The notes beneath the pieces were generated by a model. That model was not told where the DNA came from, did no database searches, and saw nothing but the letters and a program-made list of their open reading frames with translations. DNA of 18,052 bases from the IMG/VR virus record IMGVR_UViG_2663762648_000009. The stretch is one strand, 5' to 3'. The position numbers were made by a program, and so were the translations under genes. This stretch comes from a virus (taxonomy: Duplodnaviria > Heunggongvirae > Uroviricota > Caudoviricetes). Below, piece by piece: positions 1-18,052 of the stretch. Position 1 is the stretch's first letter; each line of letters starts with the position of its first letter.

Positions 1-66
1 CCCAAACGAATCGGAAAATCGATACTGGAAAAACTCTAACTCGGTGGCCAGTTTTTGTTGACCACT

Positions 67-6022
<5,956 letters not shown>

Positions 6023-6212
6023 GCTTACCTTCCCTGAACGAGCTAACATAAATGCGCCCTTTCTAGCACAGCGAAAAAATGTAAATACTGATAGCAATAC
6101 GATTGAAAATTAATAACTTTTCGTTAGGCAGTTTTGGGTGTGAGTTGCAAGAGGGGAGACTACTGAATAACTCAAGTTTTATAATCGAGGGGAAAATGGT
6201 GATGGCGTTCAT

Positions 6213-6246
6213 AGCAAAACGCCCTCAACCATAAAGGTCGAGGGCG
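6213..6246 (-). terminator. Putative intrinsic terminator downstream of tRNA-Asn
   Basis: Inverted repeat CGCCCTC (6220..6226) / GAGGGCG (6240..6246) with a long 13-nt loop, followed on the minus strand by TTTTG (plus 6215..6219). Lies about 90 nt 3' of the tRNA. Confidence 0.4.
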
Positions 6247-6335
6247 CTTAAGGTGTTAAAAACCCGCTATCCGTTAAAAAACAATGTTCAACTAAGGTCA
6301 GTGACATTGCGCTAAAAAAGCGAATTTTTAGAATT

Positions 6336-6411
6336 TGGCTCCTCTGACTGGACTCGAACCAGTGACATACGGATTAACAGTCCGCCGTTCTACCGACTGA
6401 ACTACAGAGGA
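6336..6411 (-). tRNA. asnT: tRNA-Asn (anticodon GUU)
   Basis: Reverse complement reads TCCTCTGTAGTTCAGTCGGTAGAACGGCGGACTGTTAATCCGTATGTCACTGGTTCGAGTCCAGTCAGAGGAGCCA: 76 nt, cloverleaf-compatible, anticodon loop CTGTTAA, encoded CCA. Matches the E. coli tRNA-Asn sequence as recalled. Gene copy name inferred from position between yeeJ and mtfA. Confidence 0.95.
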
Positions 6412-6429
6412 ATCGTGTGAACGGGGCAC

Positions 6430-6458
6430 ATATTACTTAGCGGTACCTTGTCTGTCAA
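6430..6458 (-). promoter_or_regulatory. Sigma70-type promoter for tRNA-Asn
   Basis: On the minus strand: TTGACA (plus 6453..6458), 17-bp spacer, TAATAT (plus 6430..6435), about 18 nt upstream of the tRNA 5' end. Perfect -35 and good -10 with correct spacing. Confidence 0.6.
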
Positions 6459-6511
6459 CACTAAATTTCATAAGTCATTTCAATTGGTTAATTAATCTGC
6501 AAAGTTGTTAA

Positions 6512-7309
6512 TTAATGAACATTCGTCGCCGAAAACGAGTCTGTATCATTAGCGTGATGCAGTCTCTGCAAAGGATCTTGTTGATAAAATTGGCAGAAAC
6601 GTTGCCACAATGAAGGGAAACGAGGAGCAAAAAGTTCTGGGGCGCTAAAGAAATATTCAGAAAGTACGGCAAAACATTCAGCAGGATCGCTGGCTGCATA
6701 AGCATCAATGCTCGCCGCATTCTCGCCAACCAATTCGATTTCTTCCTGAATGTTGTTCATTGCAGCATGAAGATCGTGTTCCCAGCCAGCAACCTCACGC
6801 AACGGAATAAAGGGAACTCCGCTGGCGCGATCGCCGTTACGGGTGTCCAGCTTATGAGCGACTTCATGAATAATCAGGTTAAAACCAGATGCATCAAAAG
6901 AATCTTGTATATCCAACCAGTTCAAAACGATAGGCCCTTGCTGCCAGCTCTGACCTGACTGAACAATACGTTGGTTATGCACCAGACCGATATCGTCTTC
7001 CCATTCATCATCGACCACAAATGGCGCAGGATAAATTAAGACTTCATGAAAACCATCCAGCCATTCCAGTCCTAACTCCAGAACGGGTAGGCAAAATAGA
7101 AGTGCTATCCGGCAGCTTCTTAATGAATCCAGTTCAAAGCCCTGTAAAGGAACAAGCCGCTTTTGCTGTAAAAAACGTTCGGCAAGAGTGACTAATTTGC
7201 TTTGTTCCTGTTCCGTCAGACCCGTTAAAAGGGGGATCGATAGTGCTTCCTGCCAGGGAAGGGCAGTTTGATGTGCTGATTCTTGTACTTTCCAGGGCCA
7301 CTTAATCAT
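6512..7309 (-). CDS. mtfA: Mlc titration factor A (MtfA, zinc-dependent peptidase family)
   Basis: 265-aa ORF from internal ATG 7307..7309 ([26 protein letters not shown]...), contains HEVAHKLD (HExxH-like metalloprotease motif). Recognised as MtfA from recalled sequence and position between asnT and serU. The listed 278-aa ORF starts further upstream. Confidence 0.85.
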
Positions 7310-7402
7310 CGTTTTGCTCGCAAACTCGTCACTTGAACAAAATTGCACGAACAGGGACTGTTAAAATGCCAAATTTCCTGGCATCATGGCAACCATCTGA
7401 AC

Positions 7403-7492
7403 GGAGAGATGCCGGAGCGGCTGAACGGACCGGTCTCGAAAACCGGAGTGGGGGCAACTCCACCGGGGGTTCAAATCCCCCTCTCTCCGCCA
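7403..7492 (+). tRNA. serU: tRNA-Ser (anticodon CGA), long variable arm
   Basis: GGAGAGATGCCGGAGCGGCTGAACGGACCGGTCTCGAAAACCGGAGTGGGGGCAACTCCACCGGGGGTTCAAATCCCCCTCTCTCCGCCA: 90 nt, acceptor stem GGAGAGA/TCTCTCC, anticodon loop CTCGAAA, T-arm GGGGG TTCAAAT CCCCC, encoded CCA. Confidence 0.95.
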
Positions 7493-7544
7493 AAATTCAA
7501 TCACTTACACATCATTAAGTCAGTGACAAAAATCACACTTGGAA

Positions 7545-8570
7545 TTACTTGGAATATTTTCTTGGAATATTTTCAGGTAACGGGACATCAAGTGTTGGTG
7601 AAACTTTAACCTTCCTGTCATAGATTAGCACTTGCCCTTCGGTTTTGTGACCAGAGAAAAGTTGCTTATCCCGGCTGCTTCCTTCATAGTCTGAAATTCC
7701 TTTCGCCTTCAGATCATGAAAGGTGAAGTCGGTTAAAATACCTGAAATTTTGCCTGCGCGATTTCTTGCTTCTACCCACATTTCGTTAAAGCCTTTGTAC
7801 ATATATCGGTTGCCGTATTGATTGCTGATTACATAGGCGGATGTTGGTAACTGTTTTGCTTTTTCGATCGCCGCCTGTAATCGTGGACTCCATGCTTTTA
7901 TCTGTTTTTTCCCTGTTTTCCCTTGCTGGATAAAGATCCCGTCGTTTCCAATCTGCTCCCATTTCAGCGATAACACATCGGAAACCCTCGCTGCACACAG
8001 ATAGGCAATTTCCATTGCGATAAAAACAGGAAGAGGTGCAACGCTTAATACTGCCTGGTATTCTTTGTCGGTTACATATCGTTCGCGGTTTTTGGCCTTG
8101 AATTTACTTACACCTGCACATGGGTTAGCCTTCACGTACCCTCGCTCATACCCCCAACTGTAAACACGGGACATACTGCTTTTTTCATGGTTGGCTTGCG
8201 TTTTACTTTGCTCCCCTCTTTTGTCCATGTATCGACGGATGTGTTCTGGTTTTATGGAATCCGCTGGTACCTTACTGAATACGGCAAGCAACTTTTTTTG
8301 ATGTTGCAGATAATCTTTTTGTGTTCTTGGACTAAGGTCACTGTAATAGGCGCTGGCGAGGAATTTTTCCCACAAGCGACCGAATGTTATTGCACGATCG
8401 CGATTATCTACAGTTTCCTCATACTTTTTCCATAAAGCAGCTAAACCATCCTTGATGGCGGTTAGTGTGACAGATTCTCTGGATGTTGGTTTCCATACAT
8501 AACTATATTTATTTGGGTATACATTTGGAGGTAATTTTTCGTGTTCAGGATTTTTCCTTCGTCTTCCCAT
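7545..8570 (-). CDS. int: Prophage tyrosine integrase (lambda Int family)
   Basis: 341 aa with tyrosine-recombinase signature segments: AARVSDVLSLKW (Arg), HDLKAKGISD (His), GHKTEGQVLIYDRK (Tyr). ATG at 8568..8570 overlaps the stop of the upstream small gene (ATGA). Gene ends 53 nt from the tRNA-Ser 3' end, the typical prophage attachment arrangement. Confidence 0.9.
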   Translation of the reverse strand: MGRRRKNPEHEKLPPNVYPNKYSYVWKPTSRESVTLTAIKDGLAALWKKYEETVDNRDRAITFGRLWEKFLASAYYSDLSPRTQKDYLQHQKKLLAVFSKVPADSIKPEHIRRYMDKRGEQSKTQANHEKSSMSRVYSWGYERGYVKANPCAGVSKFKAKNRERYVTDKEYQAVLSVAPLPVFIAMEIAYLCAARVSDVLSLKWEQIGNDGIFIQQGKTGKKQIKAWSPRLQAAIEKAKQLPTSAYVISNQYGNRYMYKGFNEMWVEARNRAGKISGILTDFTFHDLKAKGISDYEGSSRDKQLFSGHKTEGQVLIYDRKVKVSPTLDVPLPENIPRKYSK

Positions 8571-8773
8571 CAGATCGCACCAAAATTCGGCTCTACCTCG
8601 CGTGGTGGTAAAGTTTTATTGCAGGTAAATAGATCCCGGCTGACAATCGGTTTGCCACTACGATTGGTATAGAACGGAAGCCCGTTTTCCATTAACCATT
8701 TTCGCTGGTGGCTTGCATATTTGCAGCCCGTTAATATTAGCAATTCATCTTCGGTTAAAAATAAGCTGCTCAT
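8570..8773 (-). CDS. Small int-adjacent protein, DUF4224-like, probable excisionase/recombination directionality factor
   Basis: 67-aa ORF (MSSLFLTEDELLILTGCKYASHQRKWLMENGLPF...) directly upstream of int with 4-nt start/stop overlap. Sequence pattern resembles the small proteins commonly found next to prophage integrases. Function inferred from position. Confidence 0.6.
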   Translation of the reverse strand: MSSLFLTEDELLILTGCKYASHQRKWLMENGLPFYTNRSGKPIVSRDLFTCNKTLPPREVEPNFGAI

Positions 8774-8831
8774 AGCTATATCTCATAACCGCCGCTAACT
8801 ATATACGGTTAGCGGCAATTAGGGTTGAACA

Positions 8832-11303
8832 TTAAAAATCAGCCTGACTCGGGATCAGTTTTTGCCAGATAACTGAAACGTATTTTGCCTGGTAACGGGC
8901 GTCATCAAGTGCATTATGGCGCTCACCTTCGAATGGAATAGCCGTTCTGGCATCGAAGTCTATGGCTTTCCCCAGCTCAACGATTGTGCGTACATCGCGA
9001 TCGTTGTAGTAACGCCACGGGCAGGGGATCCCCTGCCGTTCGTATGAACGGCGCAAAATCGTGTTGTCGAAGTTGGCTCCATTTCCCCAGACCTGAACAA
9101 AAAATTCACCGGAGTTTTCGTCGATAAATTCCCGCAATTGTAACAGTGCATCATCTAACGGGATTTCATCGGTCATAATGGCAGATTGCGCTTCGCGTGA
9201 TTGCTTAAGCCACCATTTAATGGTGTCCCGATCAATGACTCCGCCAGCAGTTTCCAGATCGATAGTCTTACTAAATTCCGGTCCCATATCTCCGGTTTGC
9301 GGATCGAAAAATATTGCACCTATTGAGATGATCGGGGCATCAGGATTTTTTCCCATGGTTTCAAGGTCGATCATTAGATGGTCACACGTCCTGCTGGTGG
9401 ATGTGATTTCTTGATGACCGTTCACCTTAATTGAGTGATCTGCCGTCTCGCCAGTTTCATTATCGCTATCGTGATGCTGATTGCCGCCAGTGTTCTCCTT
9501 GTGTGGATGTTCAGCGCCTTCCATTTCCTCCGGATCATCTTCCTGAACTTCAGGCTGATACTCTTTATCGAATGTTTCCTGGTATGTTGCGTCGCCCATT
9601 ACCGCGCCACAATCAGGGCAGTTGCCACCACCGCTTTGACCGCAGGCGGTGCAGACTTTTTCCGGTTCCTGTTGCGCTACTGGCTCAGGTTGTTTCGTTT
9701 CTGGCTCGTTTTGTAACGCATTTGGGCTGTTTTGTTCCGCTTTCTGGCCGTTCTGTTCCGTTTCTTGTTGGTTCTGATTCACTGAATCGCGGGTTTCAAT
9801 CCCCTTCACCCATTTCGGATCATTCGGGTCGCTAATCCCTGCAACAAATTCACCACGTGATACAGCAAGCAACTTATTGGCGTCAGGCTGGCTGATATTG
9901 GCTGCCTGCATAATTTTGTTTACTTCGTCAGCGGTAACTTTTACCGGCTCTGGTTGTGCGATCGTGTCAGATGCACCAGTATTTTGTTGTGAACCTGAGT
10001 ATGTACTGTTTTTGCGGGCGAAATATTCTTCTTTCGTGATTTCAGTAGCCCCGGCAGCCAGCGCCTTATCCAGACCAGAAAGTTTGTTTGCGCGACCGTA
10101 TTTTTCGCCATCCTTGTCGGTGAAGAGGAAGTAGAACGGCCCTTCACGCTCTACAGATGGTTCGACTTCCACTTTGCATTCGGTTTTTTCGTTGTCCGGA
10201 ATTGCCGTTTCCACTGCATCAGTTTCTGGTACTGGCGACGAGAGAGTATCAGTTGCGCTCTGATTTCTTCCTTCATCTTCAAACACGCCCTTTGTAGTCA
10301 GGTATTCAGTAATGTATTTGTTCAGTGCCACAGGATCTTTGTGAATGTCGATCGGACGTTCACGGACAAGGCCAAAAATAGTCTGGCGGTCGTAGCGAAG
10401 GGCATCAGGCTGTTTGCGCATTGATGCCGAGATACGCTTCCAGTCTTCGCGGCCGTTGTCGATAACTTCATTTTTTGCCCAGCGATGGATGCTGCCGTCA
10501 ATGTTTCCGGCATCCACATCACCAGGCCAGAGAGCGTAGGCCAGTTCGTCATCCAGTGTTTTCCATGTCTGCTTGTATTCGCGATGAATGGCAGCAATGA
10601 CCGGGCTGATTTTTCCTGTTGAATTTTCAGTGTACTGTTGATTGGCTCTGGCGCGGGCGAGATCAACAACAGACGTGTATTTTCCGGTTTCCTTGCGTTC
10701 ACCTTCGCGACGTTTTTTCCAGATGCGCATCTCTGCCTGAATTTCGGGCCATTTAGCACCAGGAATACATTTATGCTTAACCCACCCAATGGCGTGCAAC
10801 TTAAGCTCCGGATACATGGCGTTAACTTCTGGCATTTTCATCAACGCTTCAACGATATGTCCGTCGAATGTTGCCATGTCTTCCTGCAACAATTCCTGTG
10901 CGCTAATAACCATATCAACGGTGATGTTTTCACATGTGTCGAACTTAACCATGACAGCGTTCTGTACTTCAGGGGCCAGCTTGTCAAAAGTGACGTTCAT
11001 CGGATCGGATTCAGTCTCAACCGGGACAAAAGAAGCAGACTCCTCATCCCAGCGGTTTTCCTGCATATATTCAGCATCCCATGAATCGAGGGCAGGGCGG
11101 GGTATGCCAGGTTTATCCTCGCAGACAATAAATTTATAAGCGCAGTCCTGAGCAGCCGGATAATGTTCCAGGAATTGCCAGTGAAATTTTGCGCGGGCGC
11201 GACATTCATCACCGGCTTCAATGGTAGTGGCTACAGCGACTGCACCTTCTTCCTTTATTGCCTGTTCGTCCGGAATGGCGGCGCAAATAAAGACTTTACT
11301 CAT
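8832..11303 (-). CDS. Prophage exonuclease: C-terminal DEDDh (DnaQ-like) 3'-5' exonuclease domain, central Cys4 zinc ribbon, N-terminal region of unknown function
   Basis: 823-aa ORF. C-terminus carries Exo I/II/III-like motifs (MIDLETMG, WGNGANFDNTIL, HNALDDARYQ); centre has CTACGQSGGGNCPDCG. Such proteins are often auto-annotated exodeoxyribonuclease VIII, but the motifs seen are DnaQ-like rather than RecE-like PD-(D/E)XK. ATG 11301..11303. Confidence 0.85.
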   Translation of the reverse strand: MSKVFICAAIPDEQAIKEEGAVAVATTIEAGDECRARAKFHWQFLEHYPAAQDCAYKFIVCEDKPGIPRPALDSWDAEYMQENRWDEESASFVPVETESDPMNVTFDKLAPEVQNAVMVKFDTCENITVDMVISAQELLQEDMATFDGHIVEALMKMPEVNAMYPELKLHAIGWVKHKCIPGAKWPEIQAEMRIWKKRREGERKETGKYTSVVDLARARANQQYTENSTGKISPVIAAIHREYKQTWKTLDDELAYALWPGDVDAGNIDGSIHRWAKNEVIDNGREDWKRISASMRKQPDALRYDRQTIFGLVRERPIDIHKDPVALNKYITEYLTTKGVFEDEGRNQSATDTLSSPVPETDAVETAIPDNEKTECKVEVEPSVEREGPFYFLFTDKDGEKYGRANKLSGLDKALAAGATEITKEEYFARKNSTYSGSQQNTGASDTIAQPEPVKVTADEVNKIMQAANISQPDANKLLAVSRGEFVAGISDPNDPKWVKGIETRDSVNQNQQETEQNGQKAEQNSPNALQNEPETKQPEPVAQQEPEKVCTACGQSGGGNCPDCGAVMGDATYQETFDKEYQPEVQEDDPEEMEGAEHPHKENTGGNQHHDSDNETGETADHSIKVNGHQEITSTSRTCDHLMIDLETMGKNPDAPIISIGAIFFDPQTGDMGPEFSKTIDLETAGGVIDRDTIKWWLKQSREAQSAIMTDEIPLDDALLQLREFIDENSGEFFVQVWGNGANFDNTILRRSYERQGIPCPWRYYNDRDVRTIVELGKAIDFDARTAIPFEGERHNALDDARYQAKYVSVIWQKLIPSQADF

Positions 11304-11398
11304 TTTGTTTTAACCTCATTACAGATTTCAGGGTGAACGAATCCCTGCCATTGCTGGCATTTTTAATCCGTTGGTATGGCGTTAATATGGCTGGCGGG

Positions 11399-11587
11399 TT
11401 ATCCAGCCGGTATTTCGTTATTCAGGTTCAGCGATACTTTTTTTAACGGGAGGCATTCACCGGGGATTTTTTGTTCGTCCCTTACCTGAATGCAGGATGA
11501 CTTACTGTCATAAATTCCGGTAATCACATTTTGTGGCTCACCCGTTATAAGAAAAACGGTCATCACCAGTGCAAATGCTGAAGTCAC
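11399..11587 (-). CDS. ydfD: YdfD-like small protein with N-terminal hydrophobic/signal segment (Qin prophage lysis-type protein family)
   Basis: 62 aa (MTSAFALVMTVFLITGEPQNV...EQKIPGECLPLKKV...EIPAG). GTG start overlaps the dicB stop (GTGA). Position immediately after dicB matches the Qin dicBF operon order. Name from recalled similarity. Confidence 0.6.
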   Translation of the reverse strand: MTSAFALVMTVFLITGEPQNVITGIYDSKSSCIQVRDEQKIPGECLPLKKVSLNLNNEIPAG

Positions 11588-11772
11588 TGCTGTTCTCCGA
11601 TAATACCAAGTTCAAGAAGGGCAATTCTGGAAAGTATGGAATTATCATTGAGAAGATAAGGTTCATATTTTCTCATCTTAATGGCATCTTCCGTAAACTC
11701 CCGGTTACTGAGCAGAACACCAATATCAAAACAACCTTCAGACGTATTAACGTTTGGTAATAACGTTTCCAT
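11584..11772 (-). CDS. dicB: DicB-like cell division inhibitor
   Basis: 62 aa from ATG 11770..11772 (METLLPNVNTSEGCFDIGVLLSNREFTEDAI...), GAGGA 7 nt upstream. N-terminal half matches recalled K-12 DicB (METLLPNVNTSEGCF...), C-terminal half diverged. Lies ~170 nt downstream of dicF. Confidence 0.75.
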   Translation of the reverse strand: METLLPNVNTSEGCFDIGVLLSNREFTEDAIKMRKYEPYLLNDNSILSRIALLELGIIGEQQ

Positions 11773-11946
11773 TATCGCGTCCTCAACAATGAATTTTGTG
11801 ATGCGGTGCCTGGTGCCTCCAGGTGACGTTAACCAGTTAACAATTAACGCCGGATACAGAGAATCCACCCATAACACTGTTTTTGGTTTTAACTGTTCCG
11901 CGTGCGCTCAGCCGCATTCACCACATCACAAAATTCACTTTAAAAA

Positions 11947-11999
11947 GGGCGGCAGAGCAGTCACGGAGTAAAACTGATACCGCCAAACGTCACCAGAAA
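11947..11999 (-). ncRNA. dicF: DicF small RNA (copy 1)
   Basis: Minus strand reads TTTCTGGTGACGTTTGGCGGTATCAGTTTTACTCCGTGACTGCTCTGCCGCCC followed by TTTTT, matching the 53-nt DicF sRNA as recalled. Operon context (ydfABC upstream, dicB downstream) agrees. Confidence 0.85.
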
Positions 12000-12131
12000 A
12001 TTGATAACAGAGGGCGTTGCAGCGGAGTTGTCACTTAAGCGTATGGTCAACCTGACAACCCGGTGTCCTCAACGGAGGTGATGCTGCCAACTTACTGATT
12101 TAGTGTATGATGGTGTTTTTGAGGTGCTCCA

Positions 12132-12407
12132 GTGGCTTCTGTTTCTATCAGCTGTCCCTCCTGTTCAGCTACTGACGGGGTGGTGCGTAACGGCAAAAGC
12201 ACTGCCGGACATCAGCGCTATCTCTGCTCTCACTGCCGTAAAACATGGCAACTGCAGTTCACTTACACCGCTTCTCAACCCGGTACGCACCAGAAAATCA
12301 TTGATATGGCCATGAATGGCGTTGGATGCCGGGCAACTGCACGCATTATGGGCGTTGGCCTCAACACGATTTTACGTCACTTAAAAAACTCAGGCCGCAG
12401 TCGGTAA
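12132..12407 (+). CDS. insA: IS1 InsA (transposition inhibitor / N-terminal part of InsAB' transposase)
   Basis: 91 aa [37 protein letters not shown]..., zinc-finger CxxC...CxxC, canonical IS1 InsA. Confidence 0.9.
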
Positions 12408-12829
12408 CCTCGCGCATACAGCCGGGCAGTGACGTCATCGTCTGCGCGGAAATGGACGAACAGTGGGGCTATGTCGGGGCTAAATCGCGCCAGCGCTGGC
12501 TGTTTTACGCGTATGACAGTCTCCGGAAGACGGTTGTTGCGCACGTATTCGGTGAACGCACTATGGCGACGCTGGGGCGTCTTATGAGCCTGCTGTCACC
12601 CTTTGACGTGGTGATATGGATGACGGATGGCTGGCCGCTGTATGAATCCCGCCTGAAGGGAAAGCTGCACGTAATCAGCAAGCGATATACGCAGCGAATT
12701 GAGCGGCATAACCTGAATCTGAGGCAGCACCTGGCACGGCTGGGACGGAAGTCGCTGTCGTTCTCAAAATCGGTGGAGCTGCATGACAAAGTCATCGGGC
12801 ATTATCTGAACATAAAACACTATCAATAA
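12326..12829 (+). CDS. insB: IS1 InsB reading frame (expressed as InsAB' fusion by -1 frameshift)
   Basis: 167-aa ORF in the -1 frame relative to insA, overlapping it; canonical IS1 organisation. Confidence 0.85.
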
Positions 12830-13314
12830 GTTGGAGTCATTACCAACCGGAAAGTCTCCATGGTACAGACCCGTGCGCCATCAGGAACGGTTTCGGTGAA
12901 TCTGATGTTGCCGCGTTCGTCGAAGTGAACAACCAGGGTGCGGCCATCGCCTGGAATTATTTTGTCAGTGGGTGGGGTGTTATTCTGGCGCAGTTCGGCC
13001 TCCATGCGATCGAACTCAGCAATGTAGGCTTCTTTAAATGCAGCGGCTTTTTTGCCAGTGAATCCCATCACCAGGAAAACGAAGCCGTTTTTGGTGATTT
13101 GGTACATCGGGCGTTTTTCGCCTTTGGCGTCAGTGTAGGTGACGTCCTCAAAATTGAGGGCGTTAAATTCAGGTGAGCATTCAGTATTTGCGATGGCACG
13201 TAACACATTGTCGTGACGCTTGCCAAAGAACTCTGCGATCGCAATAGACGTAGTGACAGCGCGACCATTTTCGATGGTTACGTCAGGGTGAGAAAGGGCA
13301 GGGATAGTAGCCAT
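12823..13314 (-). pseudogene. Rha-family phage regulatory protein (antirepressor-like), 3' end truncated by IS1
   Basis: ORF from ATG 13312..13314 (MATIPALSHPDVTIENGRAVTTSIAIAEFFGKRHDNVLRAIANTE...), GAGGA 7 nt upstream; N-terminal region resembles the Rha domain. The reading frame runs into the IS1 right end at 12844/12845 and its last codons (VMTPTY-stop) are IS1 sequence, so the native C-terminus is missing. Confidence 0.7.
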
Positions 13315-13483
13315 GATGGCATCCTCGAGTGATAAGTTAATTAACTCACCACCGAGGTTTTCCACGACCATAAGGGTGGTGAGACGTACAGGGGTGGAAA
13401 TACCGGTCACTCGAGAACCCGGCCAGTCTTGCGACTGCCCTGCACATCCCACCATAATTTGAATGGAGCTGTGCATTACGCAT

Positions 13484-13508
13484 AAAAAAACCGCTTCAGC
13501 GCGGCTAT
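13484..13508 (-). terminator. Possible weak intrinsic terminator
   Basis: On the minus strand a short GC stem (CCGC/GCGG, plus 13491..13504) is followed by seven T (plus 13484..13490). Stem is only 4-5 bp. Confidence 0.35.
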
Positions 13509-13512
13509 GCGC

Positions 13513-13611
13513 TCAAGTAACGTTCGGGTTTCCACGCCCGGCACCCGTTTTATAAGGTGCAGGTGCACTATAATTCCACCCGTTCTGGTTTTCAATAGCT
13601 ACATTCAACAT
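13513..13611 (-). CDS. Hypothetical 32-aa ORF downstream of dicF copy 2
   Basis: ATG 13609..13611 with AGGAAAGAG upstream (MLNVAIENQNGWNYSAPAPYKTGAGRGNPNVT), followed by the T-tract hairpin. Occupies the place dicB has in the other copies. Very short, no recognisable family. Confidence 0.3.
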   Translation of the reverse strand: MLNVAIENQNGWNYSAPAPYKTGAGRGNPNVT

Positions 13612-13794
13612 TTTCTCTTTCCTTTCATCACCGAAGTGAACTTTGTTGATGCGGTGCCTGGTGCCTCCAGGTGACGTTAACCAGTTAACAATTAACGCCG
13701 GATACAGAGAATCCACCCATAACACTGTTTTTGGTTTTAACTGTTCCGCGTGCGCTCAGCCGCATTCACCACATCACAAAATTCACTTTAAAAA

Positions 13795-13847
13795 GGGCGG
13801 CAGAGCAGTCACGGAGTAAAACTGATACCGCCAAACGTCACCAGAAA
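13795..13847 (-). ncRNA. dicF: DicF small RNA (copy 2, in a diverged context)
   Basis: Same 53-nt DicF sequence. Flanks are identical to copy 1 from about 13647 to 13925, then continue to about 13970 with three substitutions relative to copy 3. Downstream (minus) it is followed by the small ORF and the Rha-like gene instead of dicB. Confidence 0.8.
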
Positions 13848-14040
13848 ATTGATAACAGAGGGCGTTGCAGCGGAGTTGTCACTTAAGCGTATGGTCAACC
13901 TGACAACCCGGTGTCCTCAACGGGGAAGGAATAACTCCGCCATACTTACCGCCGCGTCATTTCGCGTTGTGTGCCTGCTTTTAACCACGTCAGGCGAGGT
14001 GGTATCCTTCTTATCCCGAATAACCAAGAAGGAAATCTAT

Positions 14041-14086
14041 ATGACTAAAGAAGAATTTGTCTCTTATATTTTTGATAAAACGGTTG
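14041..14086 (+). pseudogene. 5' fragment of an unknown gene interrupted by IS1
   Basis: AAGGAA then 6 nt then ATG at 14041; 15 codons (MTKEEFVSYIFDKTV) before the IS1 left end at 14087. No continuation found in the window. Confidence 0.35.
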
Positions 14087-14141
14087 GGTGATGCTGCCAA
14101 CTTACTGATTTAGTGTATGATGGTGTTTTTGAGGTGCTCCA

Positions 14142-14417
14142 GTGGCTTCTGTTTCTATCAGCTGTCCCTCCTGTTCAGCTACTGACGGGGTGGTGCGTAA
14201 CGGCAAAAGCACTGCCGGACATCAGCGCTATCTCTGCTCTCACTGCCGTAAAACATGGCAACTGCAGTTCACTTACACCGCTTCTCAACCCGGTACGCAC
14301 CAGAAAATCATTGATATGGCCATGAATGGCGTTGGATGCCGGGCAACTGCACGCATTATGGGCGTTGGCCTCAACACGATTTTACGTCACTTAAAAAACT
14401 CAGGCCGCAGTCGGTAA
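14142..14417 (+). CDS. insA: IS1 InsA (second copy)
   Basis: Identical 91-aa ORF to 12132..12407. Confidence 0.9.
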
Positions 14418-14839
14418 CCTCGCGCATACAGCCGGGCAGTGACGTCATCGTCTGCGCGGAAATGGACGAACAGTGGGGCTATGTCGGGGCTAAATCGCGC
14501 CAGCGCTGGCTGTTTTACGCGTATGACAGTCTCCGGAAGACGGTTGTTGCGCACGTATTCGGTGAACGCACTATGGCGACGCTGGGGCGTCTTATGAGCC
14601 TGCTGTCACCCTTTGACGTGGTGATATGGATGACGGATGGCTGGCCGCTGTATGAATCCCGCCTGAAGGGAAAGCTGCACGTAATCAGCAAGCGATATAC
14701 GCAGCGAATTGAGCGGCATAACCTGAATCTGAGGCAGCACCTGGCACGGCTGGGACGGAAGTCGCTGTCGTTCTCAAAATCGGTGGAGCTGCATGACAAA
14801 GTCATCGGGCATTATCTGAACATAAAACACTATCAATAA
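14336..14839 (+). CDS. insB: IS1 InsB reading frame (second copy)
   Basis: Identical 167-aa ORF to 12326..12829; ends 6 bp before the truncation point. Confidence 0.85.
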
Positions 14840-14845
14840 GTTGGA

Positions 14846-14912
14846 CGACTGCACCTTCTTCCTTTATTGCCTGTTCGTCCGGAATGGCGGCGCAAATAAA
14901 GACTTTACTCAT
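14846..14912 (-). pseudogene. Orphan 5' fragment of the exonuclease gene (first 22 codons plus upstream region) fused to the IS1 end
   Basis: Sequence equals 11237..11303 (MSKVFICAAIPDEQAIKEEGAV); the reading frame then runs into antisense IS1. Confidence 0.6.
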
Positions 14913-15007
14913 TTTGTTTTAACCTCATTACAGATTTCAGGGTGAACGAATCCCTGCCATTGCTGGCATTTTTAATCCGTTGGTATGGCGTTAATATGGC
15001 TGGCGGG

Positions 15008-15196
15008 TTATCCAGCCGGTATTTCGTTATTCAGGTTCAGCGATACTTTTTTTAACGGGAGGCATTCACCGGGGATTTTTTGTTCGTCCCTTACCTGAAT
15101 GCAGGATGACTTACTGTCATAAATTCCGGTAATCACATTTTGTGGCTCACCCGTTATAAGAAAAACGGTCATCACCAGTGCAAATGCTGAAGTCAC
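15008..15196 (-). CDS. ydfD: YdfD-like small protein (second copy)
   Basis: Identical to 11399..11587. Confidence 0.6.
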   Translation of the reverse strand: MTSAFALVMTVFLITGEPQNVITGIYDSKSSCIQVRDEQKIPGECLPLKKVSLNLNNEIPAG

Positions 15197-15381
15197 TGCT
15201 GTTCTCCGATAATACCAAGTTCAAGAAGGGCAATTCTGGAAAGTATGGAATTATCATTGAGAAGATAAGGTTCATATTTTCTCATCTTAATGGCATCTTC
15301 CGTAAACTCCCGGTTACTGAGCAGAACACCAATATCAAAACAACCTTCAGACGTATTAACGTTTGGTAATAACGTTTCCAT
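15193..15381 (-). CDS. dicB: DicB-like cell division inhibitor (second copy)
   Basis: Identical to 11584..11772. Confidence 0.75.
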   Translation of the reverse strand: METLLPNVNTSEGCFDIGVLLSNREFTEDAIKMRKYEPYLLNDNSILSRIALLELGIIGEQQ

Positions 15382-15555
15382 TATCGCGTCCTCAACAATG
15401 AATTTTGTGATGCGGTGCCTGGTGCCTCCAGGTGACGTTAACCAGTTAACAATTAACGCCGGATACAGAGAATCCACCCATAACACTGTTTTTGGTTTTA
15501 ACTGTTCCGCGTGCGCTCAGCCGCATTCACCACATCACAAAATTCACTTTAAAAA

Positions 15556-15608
15556 GGGCGGCAGAGCAGTCACGGAGTAAAACTGATACCGCCAAACGTC
15601 ACCAGAAA
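15556..15608 (-). ncRNA. dicF: DicF small RNA (copy 3, in the intact operon context)
   Basis: Same 53-nt sequence. This copy keeps the uninterrupted leader back to ydfC (15609..15946), including an upstream stem GTTGTCA ... TGACAAC. Confidence 0.85.
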
Positions 15609-15946
15609 ATTGATAACAGAGGGCGTTGCAGCGGAGTTGTCACTTAAGCGTATGGTCAACCTGACAACCCGGTGTCCTCAACGGAGGAAGGAATAACCCC
15701 GCCATACTTACCGCCGCGCCATTTCGCGGAGTGCCACAACCGGAAGCGCACGGTCGAACTAAATTTAACGACACCGTACAGAGAGACCAATTTCGCCGTG
15801 CGCTTTCGCTTTATGCCCTGACTTTTCAGGGACATATCCTTTCAGTAAACTGTCAGTGCCGGATGTTCACCCGTGTCCGGCGCACGCACTCCACCTGACC
15901 CGTGGAGAACTCCTTAATTACCAACCTTAGCTTCGTTGGTTAGCTA

Positions 15947-16165
15947 TTAACGCGGGTATGTAACCATTCTGGCAATGCTTAATGCCGCTGCTTTTTCCAG
16001 CCTGGTGATATCCTGCTCCAGAGCGGACAGATTTTCAGCCTGCTTAGTCCTGGCTTCATTGGCCCATTTCAGATCCTGCACTGCATTAATTTTCTGGCGC
16101 ATCCACTCATAAAGTTCATCATCGGTATAGTCTGGCGCGATGATGACGGGTTCTCGTTTCTGCAT
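15947..16165 (-). CDS. ydfC: YdfC-like small prophage protein
   Basis: 72 aa (MQKREPVIIAPDYTDDELYEWMRQ...), GAGGA 7 nt upstream of the ATG. Size and position (third gene, upstream of dicF) match Qin ydfC. Confidence 0.65.
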   Translation of the reverse strand: MQKREPVIIAPDYTDDELYEWMRQKINAVQDLKWANEARTKQAENLSALEQDITRLEKAAALSIARMVTYPR

Positions 16166-16194
16166 ACTGATTCCTCGCGGTGCTGTTTCGCTTA

Positions 16195-16323
16195 TCAGCC
16201 GTTAGATTTTGCCGAACTGGAAAGCGCCTGTTTAAATTCGTTGAAGCTGAGAGTTTCTTCGCCTTCGGCAAGACCATCGAAGTATTCTTCGTAAGCCTTT
16301 TCCATGATTGTGTCGAAATCCAT
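16195..16323 (-). CDS. ydfB: YdfB-like small prophage protein
   Basis: 42-aa ORF below the ORF-track cutoff, found by hand: MDFDTIMEKAYEEYFDGLAEGEETLSFNEFKQALSSSAKSNG. ATG 16321..16323 lies 1 nt after the ydfA stop; good codon usage. Size and order match Qin ydfB. Confidence 0.55.
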   Translation of the reverse strand: MDFDTIMEKAYEEYFDGLAEGEETLSFNEFKQALSSSAKSNG

Positions 16324-16324
16324 A

Positions 16325-16480
16325 TCACTCACCTGAGTTTCTTTCCAGCCAGCGACGGGCACCATTTTCGGTTTTAAACGTTTTGCTTTTGGTATACGTC
16401 ATCGCGGTGAACGTACCGTCCTGGTTGGGGAACACGCCACATACCAGAGATTCGCTGTTGCCAAGATCGATAGTATCCAT
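16325..16480 (-). CDS. ydfA: YdfA-like small prophage protein
   Basis: 51 aa from internal ATG 16478..16480 (MDTIDLGNSESLVCGVFPNQDGTFTAMTYTKSKTFKTENGARRWLERNSGE), GAGG 6 nt upstream. The listed 78-aa ORF starts further upstream without an RBS. First gene of the operon, as in Qin. Confidence 0.6.
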   Translation of the reverse strand: MDTIDLGNSESLVCGVFPNQDGTFTAMTYTKSKTFKTENGARRWLERNSGE

Positions 16481-16663
16481 GCTGACCTCATTTCCCCTTA
16501 ACGCCGGGGTAGCGGAACAAAAACCTGCTGCATAGTTATTAAAGTTGAACCCTGCCGTCATGTTCTTACGCCTCGGGCTGGCTATTTAACCCCTGACCAC
16601 TGCCAGGTAACTCGAAGTATTGCCCTGCATTCTGTGGGGCGGGGTGGGTTGGTATGTTGTTAA

Positions 16664-16683
16664 GGTAACAAGAGTTACCTTTC
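16664..16683. promoter_or_regulatory. Perfect palindrome AAGGTAAC-AAGA-GTTACCTT, candidate operator in the early-left promoter region
   Basis: 8-bp perfect inverted repeat with 4-bp spacer, between the repressor terminator and ydfA, adjacent to a TTGACT -35-like hexamer on the minus strand (plus 16685..16690). Related GTAAC/GTTACC half-sites occur in the cI-cro intergenic region (17471..17490). Confidence 0.3.
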
Positions 16684-16720
16684 GAGTCAATACAATGTTG
16701 CAAAAGGTACATTTGAGGGC

Positions 16721-16747
16721 ATAAAAAACCCGCAATGAATGCGGGTT
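16721..16747 (-). terminator. Intrinsic terminator downstream of the repressor gene
   Basis: 8-bp perfect stem (plus 16727..16734 / 16740..16747), 5-nt loop, followed on the minus strand by six T and an A (TTTTTTA); 6 nt after the repressor stop codon. Confidence 0.65.
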
Positions 16748-16752
16748 CTGAC

Positions 16753-17469
16753 TCAGTCTAAGTATTGATGTATTTGTGAAACTTTACCTTTAATGGTGTA
16801 ACCACCATTCAGTTCGATGGGTTTGTAAAGCGGATTCAGTGACAACAGATAGATGTTTGGTCCGTCAATCGCAACTTTTTTTAGTGTTACGTTTGGCGTT
16901 CCTTCCAATTGGATTAAGATTATTTTTCCCACCAGTTCTCTAATGTTACTTGAGCATGGTGTGATCAGCACGGTAGATCCGTTGGGGATGGTTGGGAGGC
17001 CGTTAGAGTTTGTCATCGCATCTCCCTCAACATGCAATAAAAAAGAGTTTTCAGCGGTTTTTGTCATGACATCAACCCAATTCTTAATACCAGGAATCTC
17101 GGTTACTGGACAACTCATATCCCAATAACCAGCCTGTTCCCACGTTAAAACGGGCAACCGGGCGATGTTGTCACTAATGTAAGGGTACTGATTCAGACGC
17201 AGATCATCGGCTTTATCGTGACCGTCCTTTCCATAAAGAATCCATTCAGGAGATTTGGAAAGCAATTTTGACAGTAGATACAAATTCTCACCGTCAGGTT
17301 TTGAAGAGCCATTTTCCCATTTTGTTACGGATACACGAGATATGCCGATTGCTTTCGCAACCTGCTGTTGGGTTAATCCAACGTCTTTTCGACGATTCCG
17401 AATACGTTCGCTGATAGTGTTTTTCATGTAACCAATGTTACTACCAAGTGATGTTGCTATGGTTGACAT
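16753..17469 (-). CDS. CI-like prophage repressor (N-terminal HTH, C-terminal LexA/S24-like domain)
   Basis: 238 aa from ATG 17467..17469 (the listed 257-aa ORF starts at a TTG that overlaps cro). HTH segment LTQQQVAKAIGISRVSVTKWENG; C-terminal region aligns by eye with lambda CI (FLLHVEGDAMT ... VTLKKV ... LLSLNPLYKP). No obvious Shine-Dalgarno, so possibly leaderless as in lambda cI. Confidence 0.85.
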   Translation of the reverse strand: MSTIATSLGSNIGYMKNTISERIRNRRKDVGLTQQQVAKAIGISRVSVTKWENGSSKPDGENLYLLSKLLSKSPEWILYGKDGHDKADDLRLNQYPYISDNIARLPVLTWEQAGYWDMSCPVTEIPGIKNWVDVMTKTAENSFLLHVEGDAMTNSNGLPTIPNGSTVLITPCSSNIRELVGKIILIQLEGTPNVTLKKVAIDGPNIYLLSLNPLYKPIELNGGYTIKGKVSQIHQYLD

Positions 17470-17518
17470 TGTTATGTAACTATTGTTACCCTTCTGCTCG
17501 AAATAACAGGAGAGTTTT

Positions 17519-17734
17519 ATGTTCAAAGATGATGTTCTGCGCTATTTCAAAAAAAAGCGACTAGTAGCTGAGGCTCTTGGAATTTCACATGTGGCTGGTG
17601 TGCGGGGGAAAGCAGTTATTCCCAAACTTCGCGCAATGGAACTGGATGAAATTACTAACAGTGAATTGAAATACAACCCAGAACTTTACAAGAAGCAGGA
17701 TAGCACCTCAAACGAAGGAAAGAATGATTCATGA
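17519..17734 (+). CDS. Cro-like / DicC-like small DNA-binding regulator
   Basis: 71 aa, divergent from the repressor, AGGAG 7 nt upstream of the ATG; stop overlaps the next gene start (ATGA). Pattern LRYF..K..LAEALGI ... RAM.L.E resembles the DicC/YdaS family as recalled. Confidence 0.7.
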   Translation: MFKDDVLRYFKKKRLVAEALGISHVAGVRGKAVIPKLRAMELDEITNSELKYNPELYKKQDSTSNEGKNDS

Positions 17735-18052
17735 AAATCAAGCATGAACACATCCGCATGGCGATGAATGTCTGGGCGCATCCGGACGGCGAAAAAGTAC
17801 CGGCTGCGAAAATTACCAAAGCGTATTTCGAGCTGGGAATGACGTTCCCGGAACTGTATGACGACAGCCATCCGGAAGCCCTGGCCCGTAATACCCAGAA
17901 AATTTTCCGCTGGGTAGAGAAAGACACCCCTGATGCAGTTGAAAAAATTCAGGCGTTGTTACCAGCGATCGAAAAGGCAATGCCACCTTTGCTGGTGGCC
18001 AGAATGCGCAGCCACAGTTCAGCTTATTTTCGGGAGCTGGTGGAGACGCGGG
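17731..18052 (+). CDS. YdaT-like prophage immunity-region protein (partial, runs off the window end)
   Basis: Open frame from ATG 17731 to the window edge (MKIKHEHIRMAMNVWAHPDGEKVPAAKITKAYFELGMTFPELYDD...), translationally coupled to the Cro-like gene. Absent from the ORF track because no stop lies within the window. Family name from position and recalled similarity. Confidence 0.55.
   Translation, partial: MKIKHEHIRMAMNVWAHPDGEKVPAAKITKAYFELGMTFPELYDDSHPEALARNTQKIFRWVEKDTPDAVEKIQALLPAIEKAMPPLLVARMRSHSSAYFRELVETR

Follow-up and report, generated by a model that had tools for sequence, protein, structure and literature searches.

The window, i.e., the whole stretch of 18,052 bp that was analysed, carries a lambdoid prophage integrated at serU. 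The gene of its tyrosine integrase (7545-8570, minus strand) adjoins tRNA-Ser (7403-7489), and an exonuclease of 823 amino acids (8832-11303, minus strand) with YdfE_N, YdfE_C and Rv2179c-like domains is encoded downstream of ydfD in the early-left operon. At the other end lie the genes of a CI/LexA-type repressor (16753-17469, minus strand) with HTH_3 and Peptidase_S24 domains and of a Cro/DicC-like regulator (17519-17734, plus strand; PF14549, 39.9 bits; 41.3 bits with the DicC model, under its cut-off of 130). Next to the repressor gene the minus strand encodes ydfA (16325-16480; DUF1391, 51 amino acids; PF07151, 94.5 bits), ydfB (16195-16323; 42 amino acids), ydfC (15947-16165), the small RNA DicF (15556-15608), dicB (15193-15381; 62 amino acids) and a ydfD-like DUF1482 gene (15008-15196; 62 amino acids). 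DicB was matched over its full length of 62 amino acids by PF05358 (129.5 bits; cut-off 27) and NF049927 (111 bits; cut-off 100), and the YdfD-like protein by PF07358 (56.4 bits; gathering score 25). Identities to the K-12 proteins were 49/51 for YdfA, 39/42 for YdfB, 68/72 for YdfC, 38/62 for DicB and 30/63 for YdfD. A first-pass annotation of this DNA had taken the small open reading frames for homologues of these Ydf and DicB proteins, in an operon beside a CI-like repressor, and the profile matches, the K-12 identities and the domains of the repressor bear this out. In the public gene calls ydfA is longer (78 amino acids) and reaches 16561.

The gene order ydfA-ydfB-ydfC-dicF-dicB-ydfD is the same as in the dicBF operon of the Qin prophage of K-12, and from ydfA through the dicF block the DNA is ~94% identical, with YdfA, YdfB and YdfC 93-96% identical. 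DicB and YdfD of the window are of the same families as their Qin counterparts, to which they are, however, only 61% and 48% identical. Whereas Qin is decayed, with ydfE and intQ pseudogenes and IS2, the prophage at serU has intact exo, xis and int genes. The repressors differ, too: Qin has DicA, whereas the repressor of the window is an S24 protein. A DicA-type repressor was defined as a short helix-turn-helix protein without a protease domain that scores above the cut-off of model NF007257; with 79.2 bits (cut-off 101) and a Peptidase_S24 domain, the protein was rejected as a member of the DicA family.

From work on K-12 and EHEC it is known that inactivation of the repressor gives rise to a long transcript, which nucleases trim to the 53-nt DicF, whose 3′ end is a terminator hairpin of its own. 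DicF base-pairs with mRNAs, among them that of ftsZ, DicB together with MinC blocks the division ring and also alters phage receptor function, and YdfD is a lysis protein. In the prophage at serU the operon would be read leftward from beside the repressor gene, whose product would presumably be inactivated by RecA-stimulated self-cleavage of the S24 protein. DicF at 15556-15608 lies between ydfC and dicB, as expected for processing from the operon transcript, and its 3′ stem-loop runs into a T-run (minus strand, ...GCCGCCC then TTTTT).

The same 53-nt element is found three times on the minus strand of the window, at 11947-11999, 13795-13847 and 15556-15608. Each copy is identical to K-12 dicF in 53 of 53 positions and matches Rfam family RF00039 with 76.7 bits (gathering score 48; matches 11947-11998, 13795-13846 and 15556-15607), which by sequence identifies all three as DicF, as had been proposed. 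An exact repeat of 842 bp (11237-12078 = 14846-15687, 100% identity) includes dicB and the ydfD-like gene, so that the window as given has two identical pairs of them (duplicates at 11584-11772 and 11399-11587) and one ydfA-ydfB-ydfC set. The copy at 13795-13847, in contrast, sits in a different module, which the first-pass annotation had overlooked: its neighbors on the minus strand are a gene of the Phage_pRha type (rha, 12845-13314; PF09669, 112 bits; TIGR02681, 123.5 bits), whose 3′ end is cut by IS1 (the full gene has 855 bp in loci L002 and L003), a C4-type antisense RNA upstream of rha (13372-13459; RF01695, 76.7 bits) and an isrK-type small RNA (13484-13560; RF01394, 61.4 bits). This stretch (12845-14086) is 90-92% identical to the Rha-type variant of the early-left operon (dicF-isrK-C4-rha-dicB-DUF1482-exo) of closed E. 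coli genomes such as AMSCJX02 and VL7S7. The order of dicF, isrK, C4 and rha is that of these genomes, but the window has only a 1.2-kb fragment, cut by IS1 on both sides, without the 3′ part of rha and without a dicB of its own. It is an IS1-flanked remnant (rha′-C4-isrK-dicF) of a Rha-type prophage.

The window is the reverse complement of the public draft contig CXFX01000103.1 (GCA_001261315.1), with only two mismatches: at 12076 and at 14845 an N of the record is given as A in the window. Both lie at the inner edges of the exact repeat of 842 bp, and nothing else connects the dicF blocks with IS1: the junction of the dicF block with the left end of IS1 falls on 12076 (as given, CAACGGA followed by GGTGATGC, also written CAACGGA followed by GGTGATGCTGCC), and the junction of the right end of IS1 with exo′ falls on 14845 (IS1 end followed by CGACTGCACC). 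The record is divided by them into three pieces. Piece 1 (1-12075) holds yeeJ pseudogene fragments, tRNA-Asn, mtfA, tRNA-Ser, int, a xis-like gene, exo, the ydfD-like gene, dicB and dicF. Piece 2 (12077-14844) consists of a full IS1 (12077-12844), the Rha-type remnant (12845-14086; 1242 bp) and another IS1 (14087-14844), and piece 3 (14846-18052) of the first 67 bp of exo (exo′), the ydfD-like gene, dicB, dicF, ydfC, ydfB, ydfA, the repressor gene, the cro/dicC-like gene and ydaT′. Because the two N positions are the only connections of dicF blocks with IS1, each DicF copy lies on a gap-delimited piece of its own. The opening 839 bp of piece 3 (14846-15684) are a copy of the end of piece 1 (11237-12075), and piece 1 ends at the very base where variants of the dicF block part (CAACGG followed by A versus CAACGG followed by G), a position typical of a branch point in an assembly graph. 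The upstream side of DicF at 11947-11999 is the gap, and this copy and that at 15556-15608 most likely represent a single copy in the genome.

Since there is an N at both joins, no sequence supports that the three copies are contiguous, that IS1 adjoins copy 1 and cuts it off from its promoter, or that the second IS1 has lost its last 9-10 bp. This bears on what the first-pass annotation had made of the locus. That copies 1 and 3 are each accompanied by dicB- and ydfD-like genes is true of the letters of the window, but not of one contiguous locus. The triplication of the small RNA and duplication of dicB in one prophage rest on the two N joins and are contradicted by every gap-free relative examined, and the proposed separation of copy 1 from its native promoter by IS1 falls on the N at 12076.

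As evidence for an IS1 insertion, an element of 768 bp was required that has the terminal inverted repeats at both ends and is flanked by a target duplication of 8-9 bp. The IS1 at 12077-12844 is full length, but its flanks do not match and the left one is N; that at 14087-14844 stops 10 bp before its end because piece 2 ends there (if the A of the window, N in the record, is counted, it extends to 14845 and lacks 9 bp). Matching target-site duplications were found around neither IS1. Once the N joins are taken into account, neither of the dicB-dicF blocks is joined to IS1 without a break, and the truncated-looking end of IS1 and the start of exo′ in the middle of the gene are simply the ends of pieces. 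A loss of the last 9 bp of the IS1 at 14087-14845 by illegitimate recombination with exo′ was dropped, as were models of circle integration, of a composite transposon and of unequal crossover, as both joins are N in the source record. Taken at face value, the scaffold would have the second IS1 sever copy 2, too, from any native promoter, a consequence that had gone unnoticed.

Gap-free relatives offer a simpler picture. The 416-kb contig L005 encodes an exonuclease identical to that of the window, and both copies of the 842-bp block correspond to one single segment of it. Piece 1 is colinear with L005 and STEC384, and when the two repeat copies are overlapped, the result is exactly the canonical prophage with one dicF and one dicB pair, colinear with L005 at 99-100% and likewise with STEC384. 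All 17 gap-free loci have at most one exact dicF each. A comparison with related serU prophages, which had been suggested as a check, went against the multi-copy operon: ten long or complete contigs sharing the integrase have a single dicB-DUF1482 pair each and no triple dicF. Neither the IS1/exo′ junction nor the IS1-remnant-IS1 unit is present in any of 5,426 complete E. coli genomes, and the IS1/exo′ and IS1/rha′ junctions have no match in the GTDB representative genomes. A dicF/IS1 query was covered in seven of the 5,426 genomes, always as two separated pieces; the two of these that were inspected have simple IS1 insertions in dicB or ydfD. Three dicF copies occur only in two N-containing scaffolds, the record of the window (L007) and that of a sibling draft (L006), each copy on a separate N-delimited piece.

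The reading that we prefer, and consider likely, is that of an ordinary single dicBF operon in a serU prophage, whose triple-dicF layout was made by scaffolding or gap filling; such an artefact probably underlies the multiple copies. The isolate would have one lambdoid prophage at serU with one early-left operon, ydfA-ydfB-ydfC-dicF-dicB-ydfD-exo-xis-int. Short-read scaffolding and gap filling would then have chained three pieces by single-N joins: the left flank through dicF (piece 1), the remnant of a second, Rha-type prophage that shares a dicF block of ~290 bp (piece 2) and the part from exo′ through the immunity region (piece 3). The 842-bp "duplication" would be a single stretch of DNA that appears both where piece 1 ends and where piece 3 begins, and the scaffolder was presumably misled by IS1, which is multicopy, and by the dicF block that the two prophages share. 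The programs SSPACE and GapFiller, for example, are greedy and may produce false joins, and N gaps at joined contigs are later filled from reads (PMC5320598). Expansion of the repeats by assembly, which the first-pass annotation had itself named as a finding that would refute its proposal, is the most likely situation in view of the N joins, the gap-free relatives and the layout of the sibling. Some points stand against this reading. Two related drafts both place the IS1-flanked remnant by the serU prophage, which may reflect real proximity; a true duplication would likewise break an assembly at the edges of the repeat; and piece 3 starts at 11237, where the relatives examined have no clean mosaic boundary, only a polymorphic patch in exo (11193-11277).

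It is distinctly improbable that the scaffold is essentially right, i.e., that IS1-mediated recombination put the Rha-type fragment and a second exo′-ydfD-dicB-dicF block into the serU prophage, so that 3.7 kb would include three DicF genes, with a possible effect on dosage. The isolate is rich in IS1, and IS1 does insert into the dicBF operon of closed genomes; moreover, the remnant lies beside the serU prophage in both drafts, where the IS1/rha′ and hyp′/IS1 junctions are supported by sequence. Yet both critical joins are N and target duplications are lacking, and the course of events would require several recombinations and, in addition, the duplication of 842 bp with edges just where pieces end. 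These edges are not the same in the sibling draft, which also includes a stray yncL fragment, and neither the 5,426 closed genomes nor the ten long contigs with the same integrase have the layout; no independent or better assembly reproduces it. Highly improbable is also the case that the scaffold is right by chance and represents an IS1-rich isolate in which one serU prophage has, within 3.7 kb, two dicB-ydfD pairs and a DicF gene in three identical copies. Two of these copies would be severed from the repressor-controlled promoter and read only from IS1 or by transcription of the remnant, and the dosage of DicF and DicB would be changed or uncoupled from prophage immunity.

In the sibling scaffold there are three runs of N, 21, 20 and 1 long. 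The second block begins there at the equivalent of 15000, versus 14846 in the window, and is preceded by the yncL fragment, which has no connection to the prophage; the Rha remnant occurs twice and the branches that follow dicF have changed places compared with the window. The sibling assembly has at least two classes of dicF sequences, canonical and divergent (38.8 bits). A further explanation, which we regard as rather unlikely, is that the joins of the scaffold are wrong whereas the copies do exist, dispersed over two near-identical prophages with a ydfD-dicB-dicF block each plus the Rha-type remnant. As in EHEC, the genome would then have at least three dicF genes, all at different loci, instead of a three-copy operon. 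Besides the dicF classes of the sibling, the N at both joins fits this, and several places with a dicF block are common in E. coli genomes (with the remnant as query, a median of 2 and up to 10 per genome). However, over 842 bp the two blocks do not differ at all (100% identity) and the sequences outside them join up into one canonical prophage, for which one copy written twice is the simpler explanation; moreover, the edge of the block is at 14846 in one of the sibling assemblies and at the equivalent of 15000 in the other. For EHEC O157:H7, PMC7873438, citing Melson and Kendall 2019, mentions four dicF copies on different prophages. The isolate is similar in having more than one dicF-bearing prophage module, the remnant being the second; the difference is that the EHEC copies are on separate prophages, whereas a triplication in a single operon is without sequence support in the window.

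Single-N joins in draft scaffolds, here silently turned into A, can thus fake "amplifications" of genes where IS elements or repeated modules of prophages occur, and a dosage story built on such joins would be wrong. The real content of the locus is most likely textbook and already known: a lambdoid prophage at serU with its dicBF operon, along with a fragment of a module of the Rha/C4/isrK type. Its sole addition, judged from the encoded domains, would be one more dicBF operon under a putatively SOS-cleavable CI-type repressor instead of DicA.

The remnant resembles the immI region of P1/P7, which has C4, and Gifsy-1, which has IsrK, in that the predicted C4 and isrK RNAs lie directly upstream of an antirepressor-like gene; the protein partner in P1 immI is Ant, whereas in the window it is a truncated Rha. 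Scans for promoters and terminators gave counts not above those of shuffled sequence, and the promoter-like (13595-13567) and terminator-like (13506-13489) pair of isrK alone stood out. At the sibling locus a weak c4-a1b1 target match overlaps isrK.

The DicF sequence occurs three times on the minus strand of the window (11947-11998, 13795-13846 and 15556-15607), each copy reaching 76.7 bits with the Rfam model RF00039 (gathering score 48), and the 53-nt intervals that the first-pass annotation had delimited are identical to K-12 dicF at 53 of 53 positions in every case. Self-comparison of the window revealed an exact 842-bp repeat (11237-12078 and 14846-15687), two IS1 elements (12077-12835 and 14087-14845) and three occurrences of a dicF block of ~290 bp. 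The 842-bp repeat harbors dicB (PF05358, 129.5 bits; NF049927, 111 bits with a cut-off of 100) and a DUF1482/YdfD-like gene (PF07358, 56.4 bits). As a description of the letters, three DicF sequences and two dicB/ydfD-like pairs are thus accurate.

Through an exact match to its exonuclease protein, the window was recognized as NCBI contig CXFX01000103.1 (GCA_001261315.1) over its full length of 18,052 bp, in reverse complement. Compared base by base, the two differ only at positions 12076 and 14845, where the record has N and the window A. The first is the junction of the first dicF block with IS1, the second that of the second IS1 with the second copy of the 842-bp block. Therefore, the "contig" is a scaffold in which three pieces are joined (1-12075, 12077-14844 and 14846-18052). 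Every piece has one DicF copy, and IS1 is contiguous with neither dicB-dicF block. The triplication of the sRNA in one prophage, as proposed before and the only unusual claim, does not survive this inspection of the junctions for uninterrupted sequence, nor does the separation of copy 1 from its native promoter by IS1, since the junction in question is an N. Piece ends also explain the IS1 without its last 9-10 bp, the exo fragment starting mid-gene and the IS1 placed 78 bp upstream of DicF copy 1; a biological origin of these features was dropped. Matching target duplications were not found at the IS1 flanks. Piece 1 ends at the very base at which variants of the dicF block diverge (CAACGG followed by A or by G), which is the kind of place where an assembly graph branches. 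The gap characters were apparently swapped for A before the scan; such a replacement conceals scaffold joins and can yield false junctions and false repeat edges.

We consider it probable that one operon was written twice and that a remnant was misplaced between the copies. A 416-kb contig from another assembly (L005), whose exonuclease protein is identical to that of the window, has the plain order exo-DUF1482-dicB-dicF-ydfC-ydfB-ydfA-repressor. Both 842-bp copies align to one segment of it (L005rc 12406-13247), and once they are overlapped the match is colinear at 99-100%; the outcome was the same with the closed genome STEC384. Comparison with relatives integrated at serU also speaks against a duplication, ten long or closed contigs with an identical integrase having one dicB-DUF1482 pair each. 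None of the N-free loci examined has more than one exact dicF; three occur only in the two N-containing scaffolds. That the scaffold is right as it stands is quite unlikely: the IS1/exo' junction and the IS1-remnant-IS1 unit were each found in 0 of 5,426 closed E. coli genomes. A dicF/IS1 query was covered by seven closed genomes, always as two separated pieces, and the two inspected (strains 22F46 and 33-6) have simple IS1 insertions and a single dicF. These insertions, in dicB and in ydfD of otherwise canonical operons, are genuine. IS1 does strike the dicBF operon in nature, yet by simple insertion and with dicF in single copy.

The middle piece, bounded by IS1 at both ends (12845-14086), carries on the minus strand a Rha-family gene truncated by IS1 at its 3' end (PF09669, 112 bits), a C4-type antisense RNA (13372-13459, 76.7 bits), an isrK-type RNA (13484-13560, 61.4 bits) and DicF copy 2, and on the plus strand the 5' portion (15 codons) of a gene that the second IS1 interrupts. 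The order dicF-isrK-C4-rha-dicB-DUF1482-exo is a standard alternative operon layout among closed E. coli genomes; AMSCJX02 and VL7S7 have it and match the middle piece at 90-92% identity. The piece is thus part of a second prophage, one of Rha type, rather than a duplicate of the first. The two RNAs are directly upstream of the truncated rha (13372-13595, minus strand). Of the promoter-like sites in the region, the one belonging to the isrK-type RNA is the best (TTGAAA-17-TATAGT, 13595-13567), and this RNA also has a terminator-like hairpin (13506-13489). The C4-isrK-rha control module resembles those of P1 immI and Gifsy-1 and, in many E. coli prophages, separates dicF from dicB. Several dicF copies per genome are already known, as in EHEC strains, where four are spread over different prophages (PMC7873438). 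This would suit copies that are real and dispersed in a mis-joined scaffold, a reading we regard as unlikely.

The duplicate writing of one operon probably arose by scaffolding and gap filling. Since IS1 is multicopy and the Rha-type remnant shares the ~290-bp dicF block with the serU prophage, read pairs from both unique flanks would lead to the piece that has this block. Left flank, remnant and right flank could then be linked by a greedy scaffolder. A gap filler would extend the two flanks towards each other through the same DNA, leaving the ydfD-dicB-dicF block written twice with a single N per join. The paper on the Sanger Institute pipeline describes exactly such a step: SSPACE and GapFiller are greedy, false joins are possible, and joins receive N gaps that are then filled from reads (PMC5320598).

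The sibling draft scaffold CXFI01000044.1 (L006), with a left flank 99.98% identical to that of the window, joins the same parts otherwise. Its N runs are of 21, 20 and 1, it contains the Rha remnant twice, its second "duplicate" block begins at window-equivalent position 15000 instead of 14846, and the pieces have exchanged the branch that follows dicF. A junction that is real and inherited would stay put. A 169-bp fragment (reverse complement 16769-16937), placed with an IS1 end on one side and the dicB block on the other, encodes YncL (PF28073), a chromosomal small protein without relation to prophages; its presence there points to chaining via IS1 copies in the sibling assembly. The same scaffold has a divergent DicF-like RNA (5548-5596; 38.8 bits, below the gathering score of 48) with altered 5' region and loop and a kept, compensated terminator stem (GGCGGCAUCAG...CUGAUGUCCGCC). 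A similar sequence is present in the closed genome L003 (~4830-5080), and the 250-bp block around the RNA is 88.8% identical to the closed-genome copy, which makes this a natural variant class that standard annotation would overlook.

Most likely, the genome contains a lambdoid prophage at tRNA-Ser (serU), adjoining mtfA, tRNA-Asn and a decayed yeeJ, with int, a DUF4224 xis-like gene, an 823-aa exonuclease and a cro/dicC-like gene, and a single ydfA-ydfB-ydfC-dicF-dicB-ydfD operon next to a CI/LexA-type repressor. The ydfA/ydfB/ydfC-like genes annotated upstream of the third dicF were confirmed (YdfA 49/51, YdfB 39/42 and YdfC 68/72 identical to K-12), as was the CI-like repressor beyond YdfA (16753-17469; HTH_3 and Peptidase_S24 domains), beside which a Cro/DicC-like gene was found by profile match. 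By every sequence test run, the real operon is a member of the Qin-type dicBF family. Compared to K-12 Qin, DicB and YdfD have diverged alleles (identity 61 and 48%), a CI-type protein takes the place of a DicA-type repressor and the exo-xis-int arm is intact, all of which is common in closed E. coli genomes.

By analogy to published work on K-12 and EHEC, loss of the repressor would start leftward transcription, nucleases would trim the transcript to the 53-nt DicF ending in its own terminator hairpin, DicF would repress ftsZ and other mRNAs, DicB together with MinC would block division and YdfD would act as lysis protein. Here, unlike the DicA of Qin, the repressor would presumably be lost when the SOS response triggers its S24 self-cleavage. 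Since the repressor has an S24 domain and the DicA model scores below its cut-off for it, the operon is probably SOS-inducible, unlike that of K-12 Qin. Beside tRNA-Asn (6339-6411) and mtfA (6512-7309), the inverse-autotransporter adhesin gene yeeJ is split into at least three ORFs of 1290, 383 and 358 aa (67-6097, minus strand); relatives have it intact or split in another way.
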